This document shows, piece by piece, positions 1,477-62,323 of a stretch of DNA of 64,000 nt. The notes below the pieces were generated by a model. That model was not told the DNA's origin and searched no databases. It saw nothing but the letters and a program-made list of their open reading frames with translations. Both the position numbers and the translations under genes were made by a program. Each line of letters begins with the position of its first letter. The first letter of the stretch is position 1. Where the stretch lies: NCBI GenBank assembly GCA_030674475.1, contig JAUSCZ010000023.1:87819-151818 (forward strand). Direction: 5' to 3'. Source of the DNA: Candidatus Omnitrophota bacterium (GTDB lineage Bacteria > Omnitrophota > Gorgyraeia > Gygaellales > UBA12090).

Positions 1477-4400
1477 ATGCTCCTCAAGCTTAAAAAGCTA
1501 ATATCCCTTTTTATCTCTTTTTGCCTCATTCTTGAGCAGACTACTTTTGCTCAAAGTATAAACCTGTCGCATTACTTTGCCAATCCCGGAAAACCTATTA
1601 TTCAAAGCGATAAGTTTAGGCCCTTACACCTAAGGTATCTGGGCTATGATAACCTGAGCCAGGACTTTAAGCTACTCTTAGACAGGGGAGATACCAAGAA
1701 GAAAGACCTGGAGAACAAGGCCTACATAGAGGAAAACACCCAAACCCTGCTCAAATACTTCTTCATCGGATTAGCCTTACCCAATGAGAAGTTCTGGGTC
1801 AACCTAAGGCCGGATGCCCCGGATAACATCATAGATGATGACTTGGCCCAGACAGATGTAGGCAAGATACTTCTTGAAGCAGACCTCCAACTTAAGAAAG
1901 ACACCGCCGGCTGGACCTCGCCCCAGACCCCGGAAGGCAAAGAATATTGGGATAAACTCTACCAGAAGGCTGGAGAGCTATTCGGAACCGAGAACATCAC
2001 TATTCCCACCCTCACCCGTCCCTGGATAGTCCCGGATGAAATAATAATCAGGGAAGCCCCGGATAATGCCTATATCTATAAGGCCACCTTGAAAGTGATG
2101 TTAGAGCAGGATTATCTCCAGGGGAATCCGCGCCTCGGGAGCGCGCAAGCAGTTTATAACTTTTCAGACCCCCGCTTGAAAGAGCTCAACGAATATTCCA
2201 CCCAGCTAATCAAAGAAAAAATAATTCCTAAGTTGACCTGTGAGGTGAATACTTCCAAGAGATACGCTCCCCTTAGACAAGTCTATTACTCTTTAATCTT
2301 AGCCCAGAATTTTAAAAAGAAGTTTAGCCAATCAACCGGAGAAAACCCCTATGTCAAGCTGATTGACTCTCGTAACCTCTCTAACCTCACCTCAAAAGGA
2401 CCCTGGGATAAGCGGACCTACTTTAGGGAATACCAGAAATCATTCCAGCAAGGCGAATACAACCTCAAAGCCACCGCATCCACAGTCTACGGTCAGACTA
2501 TCAGAAGCTATATGAGCGGGGGTGTAATAGTGGATATTACCTCTTCCAGTGTTAATATAACTAAGGTAGAGGCGAATAGAGAGTTGAAGCTAATAAGTAG
2601 TAGCGCGCTACTGGGGCCGATTAAGGTTCCTGCGCCCCCTGGATTTGAGCATAATGAAGCAGGCATTCTGGTCCCAGTCCCTAAGAAAAATAATAACGAT
2701 AACATATCCAATCAAGAACCTAAAGGGCATGAGCCTACAGAAGATAAAACAAAGCCGGAAATCATACTTCCTAACAGGGTAGATATTGATGCTGTCAGTG
2801 GTAAAGACCCGACACAAGAGCAATTCCATGATAAGTTTCTCCTGGAAAGTATGTCTGTTAAGGATATTCCTTTATTCTTCAAGGACTATTTAAAATCCTT
2901 GCGCCGCTACCATCTAAGACAAAAAGACAGGGATTCAGCTTATTCTTTGGAGTTGTCCGGGAAAGGAATCAGCCTGCCTGTTGGGTATGAACTCCTTTAT
3001 AAAATATTCGTTTCTGGCCAAGAAGAGGACATCCGGGAAGAAATGAAGCATCTTAGCCTTGAGGAAAGAAAGCAATTTGATCAGGCAGTGAAAGATTTAG
3101 AGAATCTGTTTATCTTGAAAGGAGTATTCGAGAAGTTTAATACAAATAATAAAGAAAAGATACAGCTTCAGCTTCTAAAAATGGCATATGCCTTTTTTAA
3201 GAAGTTAAAACAGGCAGGATTTAATTATTCTGAAGAGTTTGCTGAAAGTATATTGGAGGGATTAGAAGGAAATATTAAATTATGGGGGGCAATATACGAT
3301 GAACTGCAGATTCATTTACGCGTTGAGACTGAAAAGGCCGGACTCTCCCACCCGGAGGAATTATCGCGTTATTATTATCGGGAAAAATTCAAGCCTTATC
3401 TTGATGTTTCTAACCAGCTCCTCTCTTTGAACGTTTATTGGGATGCCTCCCGTAAAGCAAGGCTGTTAGATAACCTTGAGGAGTTGGTGGTTGTGGAGGC
3501 AATAGAGGAATTTTCCTGGGTTAAGGATATATTCAGTCAGGAGCAAAACCCCGAATTAAAGCTAAGATTTAAATTGATTGAGCCTTTCTTTGGTAAGGTA
3601 TCTTATGAGCCTCTTGAGCATTTAGGCCCGCAAGAAGCTTTTGGTCTGGAACTGGAAAAGGATGTCACGGATGAAGTCCGCTCAGGTAAACTTTTCAACA
3701 CTTCTAAGGGTTGGGAGGCTTTAAGAAAATACTTAAAAGAATACCAGCTGGACTACAATAATACTATGCATATCCATATAGATAGAGGCCGGGGGGATAT
3801 TAATCAGAGAAACCAAGAGGTCTTATATCTTGTAACTAGTTTTCTGGAAGGATACCTATTGTCGCTTAGTACTTCTCGCGCTATAGATTACCTGATGTTA
3901 GAAGCAGATGCCCAATATGCTTTAAGGTATGATTACCTCTCATATTTATATCAAACTATGAAACACGACAGAATGATCCAGTTTAATAATATGGGCAACA
4001 CCACCATAGAATTTCGTTTTGCCATGCCGCCGTTGAGGCATTTAGCCTTAAGTGAAAAAGCCAGGATAATTTATATCAAGGACCTGATTACTCTCTTTGC
4101 CGCGTTAAAAGAGATAATAATGCATCCTGAAGATAGGCTATCCTTAAAATATCTTGGTCTTCCGGTGCAAGCGGCTCAATATAAACAAAAGATTAATTTT
4201 AACCATTTAAATAGGATATTAGAAGTAGTATTCAGGGGGCATCCCCAAGCTAAGGAATCGTTCCGGAGATTGATGCTATTCAGCCAGCGCAAGAGTATTT
4301 GTTCTTATCGCAATAGCAGCAATAAGCAAATAGAGGAAAATGAGGCAAAGGCTTCTTTGCGGAAAGAGATAAGTAATTTTTACTATCTGCAAGGGTTAGG

Positions 4401-15857: not shown

Positions 15858-15929
15858 ATGAAAGTTTTCCCTTGCGTAAACGCTCGTAAATTTCTGCGAA
15901 ATTTACTTCGCACGCTACGGGATTAATTC

Positions 15930-15982
15930 GCGCATAAACTTATGCCTTCCTGCCTACCGGCAGGCAGGCATAAGTTTAGCGC
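15930..15982 (+). repeat. long imperfect palindrome / stem-loop in the nuoL-nuoM intergenic gap; its core TATGCC-TYCCTGCC-TACCGGCAGG resembles the palindrome inside the heptamer-array element at 59918-60024
   Basis: gcgcataaacttatgcc...ggcataagtttagcgc arms of about 15 bp with a central CCTACCGGCAGG, read directly. Confidence 0.5.
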
Positions 15983-16001
15983 TCATTAAGGAGGCTTAGC
16001 A

Positions 16002-18919: not shown

Positions 18920-18965
18920 AATTCATCTCAATCCGTTTATCACGTTTAACTATTTTCTCTCTATT

Positions 18966-19050
18966 TCCTCTCCCCTTGCGGGAGAGGTAAGAAATCCTCC
19001 CCTTACCAAGGGGAGGCGAGGAGGGGTTAGGTGAGGGGAAAAATTGCGAG
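18966..19050 (+). terminator. tandem GC-rich hairpins downstream of nuoN (cctctcccc/gggagagg, cctcccctt-acc-aaggggagg, ggggaaa-...-tttcccc)
   Basis: Three perfect 7-9 bp stems read directly after the operon's last stop codon. Confidence 0.5.
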
Positions 19051-19435
19051 TTTCCCCTGATAATTGACTGGCTACCCTAATTGTGATATTTTTATCGACA
19101 ATGGCAATGGCTGTGATAAACTGGGTGTATAAATTGGCCAAAGTAGCTTTGTTACGAGAGTGGAACTATTAGCGGGGTATTGGGATAGATTGGTAAGGCA
19201 ATGGAAGCGAATGATAAAGTTTTGGATTCGTCAGTCATTTGATAGCATCGAACAAGTTGAAAATAGATACGCGAATTTAACCGTGCCTGTTGAAGTGGCT
19301 TTGCAGTAGTTTCCACGAATCAACTTGTTGATAAGGGTACCAATGAAACTATGGAGAGAAACGAGGGATTAAAATCACTCACATTCAGGCGGTGTCATCA
19401 ATAGGGCATTGTGGCCACTGGGGAGCAAGGATATA

Positions 19436-38097: not shown

Positions 38098-38339
38098 GAG
38101 AATGGCGGGGTTAACCCTTGTCCCGACGAAAAGTCGGGATCCCGACCTTGTCGGGAAAATGTGAAAAGATTTGATAAATAAAGAAAAGGATTGCCCATAA
38201 TTTTAGAGTTAGGTTGATTGAGGCATATAGTTGTTATAAAAACTTGTAATTTACGGCAAAGAGTGATGTAATTGTATCAGATATTGAAGCGATTAATAAG
38301 CTTAATCGCCTCTCGGATTATTAATTTTATCTTTTCTAC

Positions 38340-42527: not shown

Positions 42528-44252
42528 ATGAACGTGGATATTACCATAAAAATAGCCGGGGAGGCCGGCCAGGGCTTGCAGACTATTGGCCGGCTTCTGG
42601 CTAAGGCGTTTTCCCGGGGAGGCTGGCATGTATTTGCCAATCAGGTTTTGCAATCAAGAATCCGGGGCGGGCACAATTGGTTTCAAGTCCGAGTCTCGGA
42701 TATTAAAATTTTGGCCCCCGCGGAGGTTACTGATATTCTGATTGCCCTGGATAATGAAAGTGTTTATCATACCCGAGAGCTTAGTGAAAATTCGATTACC
42801 ATCTTTGATTCTTCCCTGATTAAATATAATTCCGAAAAGGGATTAATTTTGGATATTCCCTTTGAAAAGACCGCCAAAGAAAGCGGGGGAAATAAGCTGA
42901 TAAGTAATACCGTGGCCCTGGGAGCGGTGTTAGGCCTTCTGGAATACGATATAAATATTTTATTTGGCCTGCTTAAGGAAAGCTTTCAAGAAAAGGATCA
43001 AGGGATTGTTCAGGCTAATATTCAGGCGGCCCAGGCCGGATACAATCTCGCCTACCAAAAGATTAAAGCAAATAAGCTTCCCCGTTTAAACAGGACAAAC
43101 GGCCATCCGAGGATGCTGATTAATGGAAGCGAGACCATAGCTTTAGGGGCCTTGGCCGCCGGATGTAAATTTATCTCAGCTTATCCGATGAGCCCTTCCA
43201 CCGGCATAATGACCTATCTTGCTTCCCAGGCGGAGGAGTTTAAGGTATTAGTGGAGCAGTCCGAGGATGAGATTGCTTCCATAAATCTGGCCTTAGGGGC
43301 TTCTTATGCCGGGGTCCGGGCCATGACCGCTACCAGCGGCGGAGGTTTCGCCCTGATGGTTGAGGGCCTCAGCTTAGCCGGGATGACTGAAACCCCAATA
43401 GTTATTGTGGATGCCCAAAGGCCGGGCCCGGCCACCGGTCTGCCTACCCGGACCGCCCAGGAGGATTTGGAGTATGTAATTTATGCCGGTCACGGTGAAT
43501 CTCCCCGGGCGGTATTGGCTCCTCTAAGCATAGAAGATGCCTTTTATCTGACGGTAAAGGCCTTTAACCTGGCGGATAAATACCAGATACCGGTAATAAT
43601 TTTGAGCGACCAATTATTAGCTGATTCCTATTTAACCGTGGATAGTTTTGATGTTGAAAGCCTAAAGATTGAAAGGCATATCTTAAGCGATGAGGAGTTA
43701 AAGAATATAAAAAACTACAAAAGATACCAAATTACCGATTCGGGAATTTCTCCCCGGGCCTTGCCGGGAAATCCTTACGGCCTGGTGGTGGCGGATAGTG
43801 ATGAACACGATGAAGAGGGCCATATTACCGAGGATGTGGATTATATACGCCCGGAGATGGTCAAGAAAAGAAATCGTAAGACAGCCGGTTTATTGAAAGA
43901 GATGTCCGCGCCGATACAATACGGCCCCCCGGAGGCCAAAAACATAATCATCGGTTGGGGTTCAAGTTACGGCGCGCTTAAAGAAGCGGTGGATATCCTG
44001 AATTCGGAAAAAGAAAAGGTGAGCTTAGCGCATTTTAACCAGGTCTGGCCTTTAAATAAAGAATATTTTGACTTTCTGAATACGGCGGAATTCGTCTGCG
44101 TTGCGGAAAATAATTTCCGCGGGCAATTCGCCCATTTGATTGCCGGGGAAACCGGAAAGGTAATCAAAAACAGGATAAATAAATTTAACGGCTTGCCTTT
44201 TTCGGCGGCAGAGATAGTCCGGGAATATAAGAGGCTAAAAAATAGTTTATAG
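42528..44252 (+). CDS. korA: 2-oxoacid:ferredoxin oxidoreductase, fused gamma-alpha subunit (ORF opens with TTG at 42492; ATG at 42528 preferred)
   Basis: N-terminal gamma-like domain (IKIAGEAGQGLQT), alpha domain (SETIALGALAAGCKFISAYPMSPST), C-terminal domain III; 574 aa from 42528. Confidence 0.8.
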   Translation: MNVDITIKIAGEAGQGLQTIGRLLAKAFSRGGWHVFANQVLQSRIRGGHNWFQVRVSDIKILAPAEVTDILIALDNESVYHTRELSENSITIFDSSLIKYNSEKGLILDIPFEKTAKESGGNKLISNTVALGAVLGLLEYDINILFGLLKESFQEKDQGIVQANIQAAQAGYNLAYQKIKANKLPRLNRTNGHPRMLINGSETIALGALAAGCKFISAYPMSPSTGIMTYLASQAEEFKVLVEQSEDEIASINLALGASYAGVRAMTATSGGGFALMVEGLSLAGMTETPIVIVDAQRPGPATGLPTRTAQEDLEYVIYAGHGESPRAVLAPLSIEDAFYLTVKAFNLADKYQIPVIILSDQLLADSYLTVDSFDVESLKIERHILSDEELKNIKNYKRYQITDSGISPRALPGNPYGLVVADSDEHDEEGHITEDVDYIRPEMVKKRNRKTAGLLKEMSAPIQYGPPEAKNIIIGWGSSYGALKEAVDILNSEKEKVSLAHFNQVWPLNKEYFDFLNTAEFVCVAENNFRGQFAHLIAGETGKVIKNRINKFNGLPFSAAEIVREYKRLKNSL

Positions 44253-44329
44253 TTTATAGTTGATAGTTTATAGTTAATAGCAAATATAGCTAAAACCCTA
44301 AACCCTAAACCCTAAACCCTAAACTAAAT
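44244..44329 (+). mobile_element. heptamer-array element copy A: (AGTTKAT)x5 - AGCAAATATAGCT - (AAACCCT)x4, filling the korA-korB gap
   Basis: Tandem 7-mers read directly. The korA stop codon lies inside the first array and the korB ATG abuts the last repeat; related copies at 52528-52638 and 59918-60024. Confidence 0.6.
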
Positions 44330-52527: not shown

Positions 52528-52638
52528 TTAGTTTATAGCTGATAGTTGATAGTTTAGAGCAAAAGATTAGCGAACTAAATAGAATTTATGTTTGTTTTTT
52601 TGCTATCAACTATCCGCTATCAACTATCAACCAAATAT
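52528..52638 (+). mobile_element. heptamer-array element copy B with terminal inverted heptamer arrays, inserted exactly between the ancestral leader (…CTTTAGGT) and the start codon of giant paralog 3
   Basis: Left array agtttat-agctgat-agttgat-agtttag, right array (reverse complement) gctatca-actatcc-gctatca-actatca. The flanking 52464-52524 aligns with 1424-1476 upstream of paralog 1, where the ATG follows immediately. Confidence 0.65.
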
Positions 52639-56809: not shown

Positions 56810-57262
56810 TCAGGATAATCCTAGCTCATGCTTGATCTTCTCAAAAGGAACCAGCCCTAACTTTTGGGCTTCAACAATGCCCTTTTTTAGTTTTAGCGCT
56901 AATTTAGGGTTGACCGGCAGGTGGGTTTCGATGGCGTCAATAAGCCAGCCGACAGGATTGTGGTGGACATATTCTTTGGCTGGAACGTTTTCTTCAAATT
57001 TCGTATCAAAGGCACAAAGCATATCCCAAAGCGAATATGTGTCAAATATAAAATACTTAGGAGAGCCGCCCTTATCTGTTATTACTCCGGCTTTGAAATT
57101 TTTAGGAGAAGATAATCCGGCATTTTTAAGCTCTTTGGCAGAAACAGCTGAAAATTTTGTCAGCTTCTCTAGCTTCACTAATTTTTTCCCCAAAGATATA
57201 CTGGACAATGATTTTGCTTTCATTTCTTTGCTCCTCAATAAAGAGGATAACATATCCAGCAA
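56810..57262 (-). CDS. Phd/YefM-like antitoxin (start codon uncertain; internal Met codons possible)
   Basis: Directly upstream of and co-oriented with the RelE gene (8-nt gap); the central region resembles the Phd/YefM fold. Confidence 0.5.
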   Translation of the reverse strand: MLDMLSSLLRSKEMKAKSLSSISLGKKLVKLEKLTKFSAVSAKELKNAGLSSPKNFKAGVITDKGGSPKYFIFDTYSLWDMLCAFDTKFEENVPAKEYVHHNPVGWLIDAIETHLPVNPKLALKLKKGIVEAQKLGLVPFEKIKHELGLS

Positions 57263-57329
57263 TTCAAGTCAAGGCAATTTCCAGGATTTGTCTTGATACT
57301 GAGTGATTACTTTAAGATTATATAGTATC

Positions 57330-57360
57330 TTGACAAGTCATATATAATATGTTATATAAT
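57330..57360 (+). promoter_or_regulatory. sigma70-like promoter (TTGACA-N17-TATATA/TATAAT) positioned so that transcription would start at or within about 3 nt of the ATG of the HTH-Fic gene (leaderless mRNA candidate)
   Basis: ttgaca at 57330-57335; tatataat at 57353-57360; ATG at 57365; no SD. Confidence 0.4.
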
Positions 57361-57364
57361 AATT

Positions 57365-58291
57365 ATGCTGAATAGCAATAATTATATTGGCAAAATCAGG
57401 GAAATGCTGGAAAAAACCGGCTGGGGGCAAGCTCAATTTGCCCAGGAGCTGGGCGTAACTTTTGCCACAGTTAACCGCTGGCTCAACGGCCACCACAGGC
57501 CGCATTTGAGCCAGATACGCCAGATTGAGAGGTTACATAAAAACATTATCGGAATCATCCCGGTAACCAAGCAAGAAATGGAGCAGATTATTTTACAGTT
57601 GAAGGCCAAGATAAAGCAGTATCCGGATATTAAGAAAATCTTGCGGGATGATACAACATCCGAGGAGTTTCTGTTGGAGTTGACCTATAATTCCGACGCC
57701 ATTGAGGGGAATACATTAACTAAGAAAGAGACGGAAACAGTTATCTTCAATAACGCCTCTATCAAGGATAAAAGCTTAATTGAACATCTGGAGGCGGTAA
57801 ATCATGCGGTGATCCTGAAGGATATTTTTTCGGGGAAGATTGGCTGCCCGGTTGATGAAGAGCTGATAAAAAAGACGCATAAGATATTGATGCAGGGCAT
57901 CCGGGATGACGCCGGCGAATACGCCAGCCATCAGAGGGCAATCCGGGGGGTGGATTTGATCCTGCCGTCCCCCGATGATATTGCCGGGGAAATGAAGTTA
58001 TTTTTAAGCAAAGTTAATGACTTCCCGCCTCGACCGATTGAGCATATTGCCAGGATGCACGCGGATTTTGAGGCGATTCATCCTTTCGGCGACGGCAATG
58101 GCCGCGTAGGACGGCTGATTATGATTGTTCAGTTAATTCATTGTGGTTTTGCTCCCTGTATCATTAGCGTTAATGAAAAAGCCCGGTATTATGAATCCCT
58201 AGAATATGTCCAAAAAAAGTCTGAAACGCATCTTGTGTGTTTCCTGGCTGAAGCGGTATTGAAGGGCTATGAGTTAATTAGTTCTCACTGA
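57365..58291 (+). CDS. Fic-family protein with N-terminal Xre-type HTH
   Basis: HTH (GQAQFAQELGVTFATVNRWLNG) and Fic motif HPFGDGNGRVGR. Confidence 0.8.
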   Translation: MLNSNNYIGKIREMLEKTGWGQAQFAQELGVTFATVNRWLNGHHRPHLSQIRQIERLHKNIIGIIPVTKQEMEQIILQLKAKIKQYPDIKKILRDDTTSEEFLLELTYNSDAIEGNTLTKKETETVIFNNASIKDKSLIEHLEAVNHAVILKDIFSGKIGCPVDEELIKKTHKILMQGIRDDAGEYASHQRAIRGVDLILPSPDDIAGEMKLFLSKVNDFPPRPIEHIARMHADFEAIHPFGDGNGRVGRLIMIVQLIHCGFAPCIISVNEKARYYESLEYVQKKSETHLVCFLAEAVLKGYELISSH

Positions 58292-58450
58292 AAAACTCTC
58301 GTTTTTCAGTGAGAACTAATTCCAAAGGGGCTCACGCCCCTATGGCGTTCGTTCCGACTCCGTCGGAACTCACTGTTACCCCTTAAGGGGGTTGCCTGCA
58401 ACCCCCTTAAAATCCCCCAGTAGTTACCACTTTTTCAGTGGTAACTAATT
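58279..58450 (+). other. cluster of five consecutive perfect stem-loops bounded by direct repeats TTTTTCAGTGRKAACTAATT (58302-58321 and 58431-58450); candidate structured RNA or REP/MITE-like insertion
   Basis: Five stems read directly: a 17-bp stem covering the Fic stop; aggggc-tcac-gcccct; gttccgac-tcc-gtcggaac; ttaagggggttg-cctg-caacccccttaa; agttaccact-ttttc-agtggtaact. Confidence 0.5.
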
Positions 58451-58469
58451 GGCAAGAGATATAAATGAT

Positions 58470-59171
58470 ATGGTTAAGACCCTGGTCTTTATCCACGGCT
58501 GGGCCAGCGCGCCGGAGATCTGGCAGAGGCAGAGGGAATATTTTGCCAAAGATTATGAGGTTGTCCTGCCGGATATAAGTCCGGCCCGGGATATTCAAGA
58601 AGCGGCAGGCCTGCTCAAGGATGCAATTAAAGACAGGAAGGATTTTGTCCTGATTGGCTGGTCTCTGGGCTGGATGGTGATTTTAGAAGCGCTCAAGAGT
58701 TTATCCTTAAAGCCTAAGGCCGTGGTGGCGGTAAATTCTACGCCTAATTTTTGCTCTGACGAATATCTGGAGACAGGTTTTACCCAAACCCATCTGAATA
58801 AGATGATAAGGGATTGTAAGCGCGATCCCCAAAAGACCAGGGAGAATTTTTATAAAGGACTCCTTACAGAGAGCGGAAAGAGCATGGCCAGCAGTTTTCA
58901 GTTTAAAAACATAGATTATAGCAAGCTGATTTATGGCTTGTCCATGCTTAAGGATGCTAATTACCGGGATTTTATCCGGGCTATAGATATCCCGGCGCTG
59001 ATTATTACCGGGGCCAGGGATACTATTTGTGTTCCTCAGGTATCCGAATATATGCGTCAGAGGATTAAGCAGTCGGAATTAAAGGTTTTTGACTGTGGGC
59101 ACTTGCCGTTTCTGGATAAGGCTGAGGAATTTAATTTCGCGATAGCTGATTTTATTAGAAAGTTAAAATGA
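58470..59171 (+). CDS. bioH: alpha/beta hydrolase, BioH-like pimeloyl-ACP methyl ester esterase (ORF track starts at TTG 58449)
   Basis: VFIHGW N-terminal motif, nucleophile elbow GWSLG, C-terminal His in CGHLPF; adjacent and coupled to bioC. Confidence 0.55.
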   Translation: MVKTLVFIHGWASAPEIWQRQREYFAKDYEVVLPDISPARDIQEAAGLLKDAIKDRKDFVLIGWSLGWMVILEALKSLSLKPKAVVAVNSTPNFCSDEYLETGFTQTHLNKMIRDCKRDPQKTRENFYKGLLTESGKSMASSFQFKNIDYSKLIYGLSMLKDANYRDFIRAIDIPALIITGARDTICVPQVSEYMRQRIKQSELKVFDCGHLPFLDKAEEFNFAIADFIRKLK

Positions 59172-59929: not shown

Positions 59930-60024
59930 TAGTGTATGCCTGCCTGCCGGCAGGGTTTATAGCAAATAAATTAAAACTGTTTATCAATGAGCTATAAACT
60001 ATCAACCATAAACCATAAACTAAA
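59918..60024 (+). mobile_element. heptamer-array element copy C (GTTGATAGTTGATAGT - palindrome CCTGCCGGCAGG - …AAACTAT CAACCAT AAACCAT AAACTAA) between bioC and bioDA
   Basis: Read directly; provides the bioC stop codon and abuts the bioDA ATG with no SD. Confidence 0.6.
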
Positions 60025-62049: not shown

Positions 62050-62323
62050 GGATGAAGAGAATGTGGCTGACGGTTTTCTCGCTCAAGTCGATTTTGCCCC
62101 GCCTTTGGCGGGGCCGCCAAAGGTCTTTCGTATTTTCGGCGGCGGCGGGCCTCGCCCCGGCGGCCTCGTCGGGGCTCCGACAGCCGCGCCGTCCCGATAT
62201 TGTCCCGACTATCGTCGGGACATCGGGATTCCCGAAAATCCGAAAGCTGCTTTGGCTAAAATCGACATTCGCTGCGAAAACCGTCAGCCCCATTATTTAC
62301 ATTCTATCTTTTAGAAGTTTTAT

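Follow-up and report, generated by a model that had tools for sequence, protein, structure and literature searches.

Five hairpins between fic and bioH of an Omnitrophota bacterium, very probably a 167-bp miniature transposable element with IS5-type ends

What are the five stem-loops that stand back to back between fic and bioH in the genome of a Candidatus Omnitrophota bacterium? They occupy positions 58276-58450 of a stretch of 64,000 nucleotides from contig JAUSCZ010000023.1 (assembly GCA_030674475.1; hereafter the window), in which a repeat finder recovers all five, near-perfect, together with a 20-mer that is present three times. [quoted passage not shown] We conclude, with a probability of about 0.92, that the five hairpins are a 167-bp non-coding MITE with IS5-type ends, which was inserted into the last fic codons in this Omnitrophota lineage. 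The features concerned are given below, where TIR stands for terminal inverted repeat, IS for insertion sequence, and labels such as L124 for individual loci or contigs.

57365..58291, + strand: HTH_3 + Fic gene (fic); the last three codons and the stop (SSH*) come from the inserted element.
58276..58279, no strand: left copy of the AATT target-site duplication, 4 bp; a single AATT stands in the empty sites of L124/L125 (GAGTTAATTGGCAAGAG).
58280..58446, + strand: inserted non-autonomous element (the probable MITE), 167 bp; absent at the orthologous fic-bioH junction of relatives, three further copies elsewhere.
58280..58295, + strand: left TIR AGTTCTCACTGAAAAA, 16 bp; matches the left end of a 1,489-bp IS at 16/16 positions, also found in L085 and L031.
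58302..58317, + strand: internal inverted TIR copy TTTTTCAGTGAGAACT; forms hairpin 1 by pairing with the left TIR; found in each of the four copies, where the stems co-vary.
58318..58321, no strand: internal AATT after the internal TIR copy; AATT in 3 of 4 copies, GTTT in L133.
58276-58296 / 58301-58321: hairpin 1, arms of 21 nt, 100% complementary; the left arm spans the fic stop codon (58289-58291).
58322..58345, + strand: hairpin 2 (CCA-AGGGGC / GCCCCT-TGG); short stem AGGGGC/GCCCCT lengthened by CCA/TGG, 9 pairs, invariant in the four copies.
58351..58369, + strand: hairpin 3 (GTTCCGAC-tcc-GTCGGAAC), arms 58351-58358 / 58362-58369.
58383..58410, + strand: hairpin 4 (TTAAGGGGGTTGC / GCAACCCCCTTAA), arms 58383-58395 / 58398-58410.
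58422..58446, + strand: hairpin 5, a short 25-bp fold-back (AGTTACCACT-ttttc-AGTGGTAACT), from repeat finder and folding.
58431..58446, + strand: right TIR TTTTTCAGTGGTAACT; right insertion boundary relative to the empty site.
58447..58450, no strand: right copy of the AATT target-site duplication, 4 bp, from comparison with the empty site.
58470..59171, + strand: bioH-like alpha/beta hydrolase gene; its conserved upstream sequence GGCAAGAGATATAAATGATATG now begins right after the element.

Relatives show the locus without the insert. Two Omnitrophota contigs from Hainich groundwater (L125, L124), with BioH 81% and Fic 93% identical to the proteins of the window, carry fic directly upstream of bioH and read GGCTATGAGTTAATTGGCAAGAGATATAAATGATATGG, i.e., GAGTT AATT GGCAAGAG with no element. 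Their junction ...GGGCTATGAGTTAATTGGCAAGAGATATAAATGATATGG... holds a single AATT and the fic stop TGA, and the bioH ATG follows 1 nt later. The window reads GAGTT-AATT-[58280...58446]-AATT-GGCAAGAG, which is a clean gain of 171 bp made up of the 167-bp element and a 4-bp duplication. Target-site duplication and empty site are thus both found, as expected of a MITE.

The ends have the expected form as well. The outer arms (58276-58295 / 58431-58450) are 90% complementary over 20 nt, i.e., they are TIRs. The direct 20-mers TTTTTCAGTGAGAACTAATT (58302-58321) and TTTTTCAGTGGTAACTAATT (58431-58450), which the earlier note had described, are present with 90% identity, and a third, inverted copy lies at 58276-58295; these are 3 matches vs 0.01 expected by chance. 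Outside the locus, no further TIR copy was found in the window at up to 3 mismatches. The 20-bp repeats are composed of the 16-bp TIR (AGTTCTCACTGAAAAA / TTTTTCAGTGGTAACT) plus 4-bp AATT, of which only the outer AATT is duplicated. The proposal of a MITE-like insertion with target duplication therefore stands with regard to the insertion but not with regard to the 20-bp repeats as its duplication. Of the TIR end the element has three copies, a left-handed one and two that are right-handed. These transposon ends make up the fold-back hairpins 1 and 5, and hairpins 2-4 form a G+C-rich cargo. The first stem does lie over the fic stop codon; it had been put at 17 bp and measures a perfect 21 bp. 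For hairpin 5, the repeat finder gives an inverted repeat of 58416-58431 with 58437-58452 (88% complementary). Apart from the three terminal fic codons, the element (58280-58446) holds no open reading frame (ORF), and no transposase similarity was found within it.

To see how far the end motif extends, one genome per species was scanned for the 20-mer TTTTTCAGTGNNAACTAATT, where counts refer to the matches listed. The motif occurs at at least 119 loci in many phyla, and the matches listed include Nitrospinota, Desulfobacterota, Omnitrophota, Ignavibacteriota, Bacteroidota, Binatia and Nitrospirota. Among them, it is found on up to 12 contigs of one metagenome-assembled genome (MAG), often at contig ends, while some single matches inside genes of Bacillus-type genomes look like chance. 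Many loci show an inverted copy AATTAGTTNNCACTGAAAAA 90-230 bp to the left of the 20-mer. Among the matches listed, the inverted partner is present in proper end-to-end geometry for 35 of 122 exact matches vs 3 in a control geometry, and unit sizes cluster at 108-250 bp. Transposase remnants inside or adjoining the repeats of L019, L015, L075 and L110 show that these are internal-deletion intermediates.

The units also fix the length of the duplication. Most carry AATT on both sides, and since AATT is palindromic, such flanks alone do not separate a duplication from a longer TIR. Where flanks are non-palindromic, all four cases are direct repeats (L009 ATTT/ATTT, L029 ACTT/ACTT, L034 AAAT/AAAT, L083 AAGT/AAGT), and no exact non-palindromic inverted pair was found among the flanks. 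The IS group with the same ends likewise makes a 4-bp duplication, with ACAT at an IS of Leptospira and AATT at L077 as well as at most copies of L139-L148. The target duplication is thus 4 bp rather than 20 bp.

Which autonomous elements share these ends? A 1,489-bp IS bounded by AGTTCTCACTGAAAAAG / CTTTTTCAGTGAGAACT is 16/16 identical to the left end and the internal copy in the window. It was seen in 10 places (L139-L148), mostly flanked by AATT, and encodes an intact 440-aa DUF772+DDE_Tnp_1 transposase (P0079). The same ends bound elements in L085, L031 and L077, such that the TIRs are common to the element and to autonomous ISs, again as expected of a MITE. L077 (Syntrophaceae) is 1,640 bp long with a 468-aa transposase that scores 317.9 bits with NF033578 ('IS5 family', cut-off 275). 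L085 (Binatia) has a 438-aa transposase at 360.8 bits with NF033593 ('ISNCY', cut-off 325), i.e., both exceed the family cut-offs, and both carry Pfam DUF772 and DDE_Tnp_1. L031 (Ignavibacteriota) is a frameshifted full-length copy; full-length elements with the same ends hence occur in three phyla. Although the transposases of L077 and L085 have only 27% identity, the 16-bp end is common to both. With the L085 transposase as query, 829 homologues, P0079 among them, were obtained at E < 1e-40, most on contigs of 1.4-2.5 kb and named 'IS5 family transposase' by JGI. An IS on a Leptospira interrogans plasmid (L138), annotated 'IS5 family transposase', has a transposase with 33% identity and perfect 17-bp ends TAGTCGTCCCTGAAAAA (also given as AGTCGTCCCTGAAAAA), which may be read as AGTCG...CGACT with ACAT on both sides as the duplication. 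Transposases of 27-33% identity (L077, L085, L138) have the end motif AGT....C.CTGAAAAA and the 4-bp duplication in common, which suggests that NF033578 and NF033593 form one group defined by its TIR.

A MITE should also be present at several unrelated loci. A metagenome scan with an interior 22-mer of the element as query returned 5 contigs representing three further loci, namely L134, L137 and L133 (= L135 = L136). These sibling copies have a highly similar interior, and at the flanking 4-mer (AATT/AATT in L134, AATT/AAAT in L137, a degenerate left end in L133) or immediately beyond it their flanks become unrelated. Mean column identity is 88% across the whole aligned stretch of window and siblings, flanks included. 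All copies are intergenic, stand beside unrelated genes and are arranged alike, with fold-back hairpin 1 first, then a 4-mer at the position of the internal AATT, hairpins 2-4 and, last, fold-back hairpin 5. Given this shared order, the extra internal TIR copy is inherited and does not stem from a local nested insertion, i.e., the five hairpins are a heritable trait of this MITE subfamily. Comparing the interior hairpins with all loci from the one-genome-per-species scan gave no siblings. The earlier note had named further copies and empty sites in relatives as the check on an insertion, and with three further five-hairpin loci, at least 119 loci of the end motif and the single AATT of L124 and L125, both exist. 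As a side observation, in a Logan short-read assembly (SRR13727527; L001, L002) of a sample with the exact locus, the sequence is interrupted within the element, at 58349 and 58418, whereby hairpins 3-4 are lost. The break could be caused by the repeat or by a drop of coverage over strong hairpins; such elements are likely under-represented in short-read MAGs.

From these comparisons a route of mobilisation can be proposed. The element, which has no transposase gene, carries the 16-bp TIRs AGTTNNCACTGAAAAA of a widespread IS group whose members encode DUF772+DDE_Tnp_1 transposases, named IS5-family (NF033578) or ISNCY (NF033593) by NCBIfam. Such a transposase would bind the two outer repeats in trans and excise or copy the unit, which would then enter an A/T-rich 4-bp target, usually AATT, and thereby duplicate it. 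Mobilisation in trans by a DUF772+DDE transposase is thus what the sequences suggest.

Several observations weigh against this account. No transposase homologue was found in the 64-kb window and none in an Omnitrophota genome, the homologue matches being almost without organism names. The flanking 4-mers differ in several of the IS contigs (AGTT/AATT and others), possibly because metagenome assembly produced chimeras. The subfamily is represented by only four independent copies. A simple one-step MITE origin does not account for the extra internal TIR copy and the internal AATT; the latter (58318..58321) is possibly a relic target duplication from an older event. Finally, compensatory changes in the stems, described next, hint at a constraint beyond recognition by a transposase.

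In the alignment of the four copies, 93.4% of the cells pair. Double-sided changes are observed in ten pairs, of which hairpin 1 holds seven, hairpin 4 two and hairpin 3 one; this number was reached in 0/500 shuffles, and slid controls showed none. The two compensatory pairs of hairpin 4 are found in L137 (ACAAGGGGG.../...CCCCCTTGT), where hairpin 3 is furthermore swapped for a different G+C-rich hairpin of similar size (GTCCGCC-tga-GGCGGAC). Coming from four sequences, this covariation is no more than suggestive. It could reflect selection for the hairpins, be it as DNA or as co-transcribed RNA, or equally the correction of quasi-palindromes by template switching, a mutational process known to produce seemingly compensatory changes without selection.

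Fold-backs of the TIR tips, 25-29 bp long, stand alone in other MAGs and have AATT on both sides in L028, L066 and L067. The 25-bp palindrome of hairpin 5 is itself found alone and flanked by AATT in a marine Omnitrophota MAG, identical in L067 and with one base different in L066. Another, rather doubtful history would be that of a miniature composite transposon in which about 95 bp of host intergenic DNA with three G+C-rich hairpins were captured between two tiny fold-backs and which now moves by its outer ends, the hairpins then being kept by selection. The fold-backs, of 38 bp and 25 bp, each extend little beyond two facing TIRs and also occur alone in other Omnitrophota; in the internal AATT and CAGT one would see relics of half-duplications made by the original insertions. 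That the hairpins are kept by selection is suggested by the compensatory stem changes and the swap of a whole hairpin between copies. If true, the hairpins might serve co-transcribed mRNAs as stabilisers, as sites of processing or as terminators, and an IS5-type transposase would spread structured RNA/DNA modules between operons in uncultured phyla.

The remaining explanations dispense with transposition by such ends. That the hairpins are a compound terminator, insulator or other regulatory structure which arose in situ as a divider between the accessory fic block and the bio operon is very improbable. There are indeed five very stable hairpins between two co-directional genes, the stems are preserved between copies by compensatory changes, and the end of hairpin 5 faces the start of a downstream gene in 3/4 copies. 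However, relatives with the same gene order do without the whole element, with fic and bioH 1 nt apart, and the same five-hairpin unit stands at unrelated loci. A terminator consensus scan of 57000-59000 gave no site of hairpin plus T-tract inside 58276-58450; the stems are followed by sequences other than T-runs, which is not the form of an intrinsic (rho-independent) terminator. Moreover, both strands fold equally well. When the 191-nt stretch is folded as RNA, the + strand has an energy of -93.9 kcal/mol and the - strand one of -104.5 kcal/mol, with z = -12.3 and z = -12.8, respectively, relative to shuffled sequence, since the stems are perfect Watson-Crick DNA palindromes and as such strand-symmetric. 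The terminator/insulator idea of the earlier note is thus not upheld as an origin; a secondary, exapted effect of the element on transcription or read-through is possible.

Even less credible is that the hairpins form a gene for a small structured non-coding RNA or a leader that regulates the bio operon in cis. The fold-energy z-score of about -12 would fit such an RNA, and so would the ten pairs with double-sided changes among four copies vs 0/500 shuffles. The stems are, however, strand-symmetric palindromes, the copies stand beside unrelated genes, and the ends are transposon TIRs with a target duplication. A consensus scan gave no promoter-like site within the element. Rfam 15 gave 0 matches at gathering thresholds across the whole window, so that the Rfam search which had been proposed for the locus matched no known RNA family. 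In a permissive search, the best match at the locus reached 24 bits vs a threshold of 70 bits, with a generic miRNA hairpin model and on both strands. A tRNA/tmRNA scan found no genes. With no Rfam family, equal folding of both strands and relatives that lack the element, the proposal of a structured RNA falls.

We give equally little credence to a REP/BIME-type palindrome mobilised by a REP-associated tyrosine transposase (RAYT; Y1, IS200/IS605-like), for which one could cite the clustered short G+C-rich palindromes in intergenic position and the similar CCGAC hairpins elsewhere in the window. REPs are known to insert without duplicating a target and to be linked to RAYT genes, whereas here 16-bp TIRs identical to the ends of ISs with a DDE transposase come with a 4-bp duplication and a clean empty site, and no RAYT association was seen. 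The features are those of DDE-type TIRs with target duplication and not of a RAYT-mobilised palindrome, contrary to what had been considered. A BirA/bioO-type operator, considered with hairpin 5 being 24 nt upstream of bioH, was rejected, since this palindrome represents the end of a transposon, recurs at unrelated loci and is missing in relatives which have nevertheless retained the bio operon. Integron attC sites, IS200/IS605 ends (palindrome-associated transposable elements), the 5' end of a group II intron, a TnpB/IscB guide RNA scaffold and a Tc1/IS630 TA duplication are ruled out by the linkage to DDE-type ISs and the non-palindromic 4-bp direct flanks.

What did the insertion of the MITE do to its neighbours? 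The upstream product is an HTH_3+Fic protein (Pfam Fic 1.9e-20, HTH_3 1.3e-07). The downstream alpha/beta hydrolase fits BioH, as it sits upstream of a BioC-like methyltransferase followed by a BioD-BioA fusion, and one of its homologues is labelled 'pimeloyl-[acyl-carrier protein] methyl ester esterase' in the JGI source. Fic is 93% identical to its L125 orthologue through residue 305 and then ends with SSH* in the window and with GKRYK* in L125. That is, the insertion replaced the Fic C-terminus GKRYK by SSH and set 171 bp of hairpin-forming DNA between fic and bioH, and the tight fic-bioH junction was lost through it. In the relatives, the last fic codons overlap the ribosome-binding region of bioH. 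The closest BioH relatives (L130, L131; 90% identical) have another gene before bioH with the same overlapping junction, and the conserved motif TGGCAAGAGATATAAATGATATGG therefore belongs to the translation-initiation region of bioH. The five hairpins may affect fic read-through or bioH expression, and since the coupling of fic and bioH seen in relatives is broken, this lineage may express its biotin genes differently.

Close relatives (L130/L131 vs L124/L125 vs L122/L126/L128) differ in the gene immediately upstream of bioH, the variants being fic, an unrelated ORF, a 102-aa ORF, or a PF09720 (Unstab_antitox) antitoxin-family gene followed by a 96-aa ORF. Whatever gene precedes, the start region of bioH stays overlapped or closely abutted. 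Upstream of the bio operon lies a hotspot of accessory genes. In the long-read relative L124, a different transposase (DUF4372 + DDE_Tnp_1; 2720-3886) lies upstream of the fic block, and fic is split into three ORFs, either by sequencing frameshifts or by decay.

With regard to known systems, MITEs that share TIRs with IS5-family elements include BrickBuilt, MITE293 and MITE700 of P. gingivalis with ISPg elements, and the Neisseria ATR element shares TIRs with ISNme1 (PMC4596501). Like these, the element is short, non-coding and intergenic, has the TIRs of full-length IS5-type elements and a short target duplication, and occurs in several dispersed copies. Unlike these, its TIR is AGTTNNCACTGAAAAA, its host phylum is Omnitrophota, its ends fold back on an internal TIR copy, its cargo consists of three G+C-rich hairpins, and related units span many uncultured phyla. 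It resembles the IS5/ISNCY ISs (L139-L148, L138) in its identical or near-identical 16-bp ends, 4-bp duplication and A/T-rich targets, but is 167 bp vs 1.5-1.65 kb long and without a transposase gene or remnant. The Correia elements of Neisseria and the enterobacterial repetitive intergenic consensus/intergenic repeat units (ERIC/IRU) are TIR-bounded, hairpin-forming intergenic repeats of about 100-170 bp that are co-transcribed and can alter the expression of neighbours. The element belongs to the same size class and is likewise TIR-bounded, hairpin-forming and intergenic; in contrast, there is no sequence relationship, and while those repeats fold as one long hairpin through their TIRs, it folds as five local hairpins. 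A search of the literature, by TIR sequence and by ISDol1, gave no account of this TIR or of the subfamily, and a DNA search of a plasmid collection gave no match.

The element is thus an ordinary kind of MITE that shares IS5-type TIRs. Less ordinary is that its ends fold back, that tiny solo units exist, that the 16-bp end is very deeply conserved and that the hairpins of the cargo co-vary. Such stretches in MAGs of Omnitrophota, Nitrospinota, Desulfobacterota, Ignavibacteriota and others should be labelled as mobile-element DNA and not as regulatory RNAs or terminators, and this type of element may account for contig breaks at such sites. A 16-bp end that is kept across many phyla and across transposases of only 27% identity is useful for IS5/ISNCY biology and for the detection of MITEs in metagenomes, as are units of only 25-38 bp with AATT on both sides, as target duplication would give.

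Beside the element, the window holds further structured spacers. The earlier note had assigned hairpin 3 to a family of similar hairpins, which is descriptively correct, i.e., CCGAC-N(2-8)-GTCGG is found 4 times in the window (38123, 38142, 58354, 62205) vs 0.06 expected. Two of these form a tandem in an A/T-rich spacer at 38117-38156 (GTCCCGAC-gaaaa-GTCGGGA, then TCCCGAC-ctt-GTCGGGA), and a similar hairpin, CCCGAC-ttc-GTCGGG, lies inside a MITE of an Ignavibacteriales MAG (L095). The spacer between bioDA and the next gene holds a G+C-rich nested palindrome of about 240 nt at 62055-62293 (GGCTGACGGTTTTC...GAAAACCGTCAGCC), which may be another mobile or REP-like unit. The whole bioDA spacer (314 nt) folds at -163 kcal/mol and contains the hairpin GTCCCGAC-tatc-GTCGGGAC; it turns over quickly, since L124/L125 carry a different, non-homologous hairpin cluster there. 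Unusually stable G+C-rich hairpins are also found in the spacers 15858-16001 and 18920-19410, e.g., GCGCATAAACTTATGCCTTCCTGCC...GGCAGGCAGGCATAAGTTTAGCGC, CTCTCCCC-ttgc-GGGAGAGG and CCTCCCC-ttaccaa-GGGGAGG. In general, the intergenic DNA of this genome is rich in hairpins. A recurring upstream motif class of another kind is given by tandem arrays of heptamers just upstream of start codons (44242-44324, 52529-52631, 59994-60020), with the units ATAGTTT x5.6, AAACCCT x4.6 (plant-telomere-like), TAGTTGA/CTATCAA x4 and ATAAACC x3.9.

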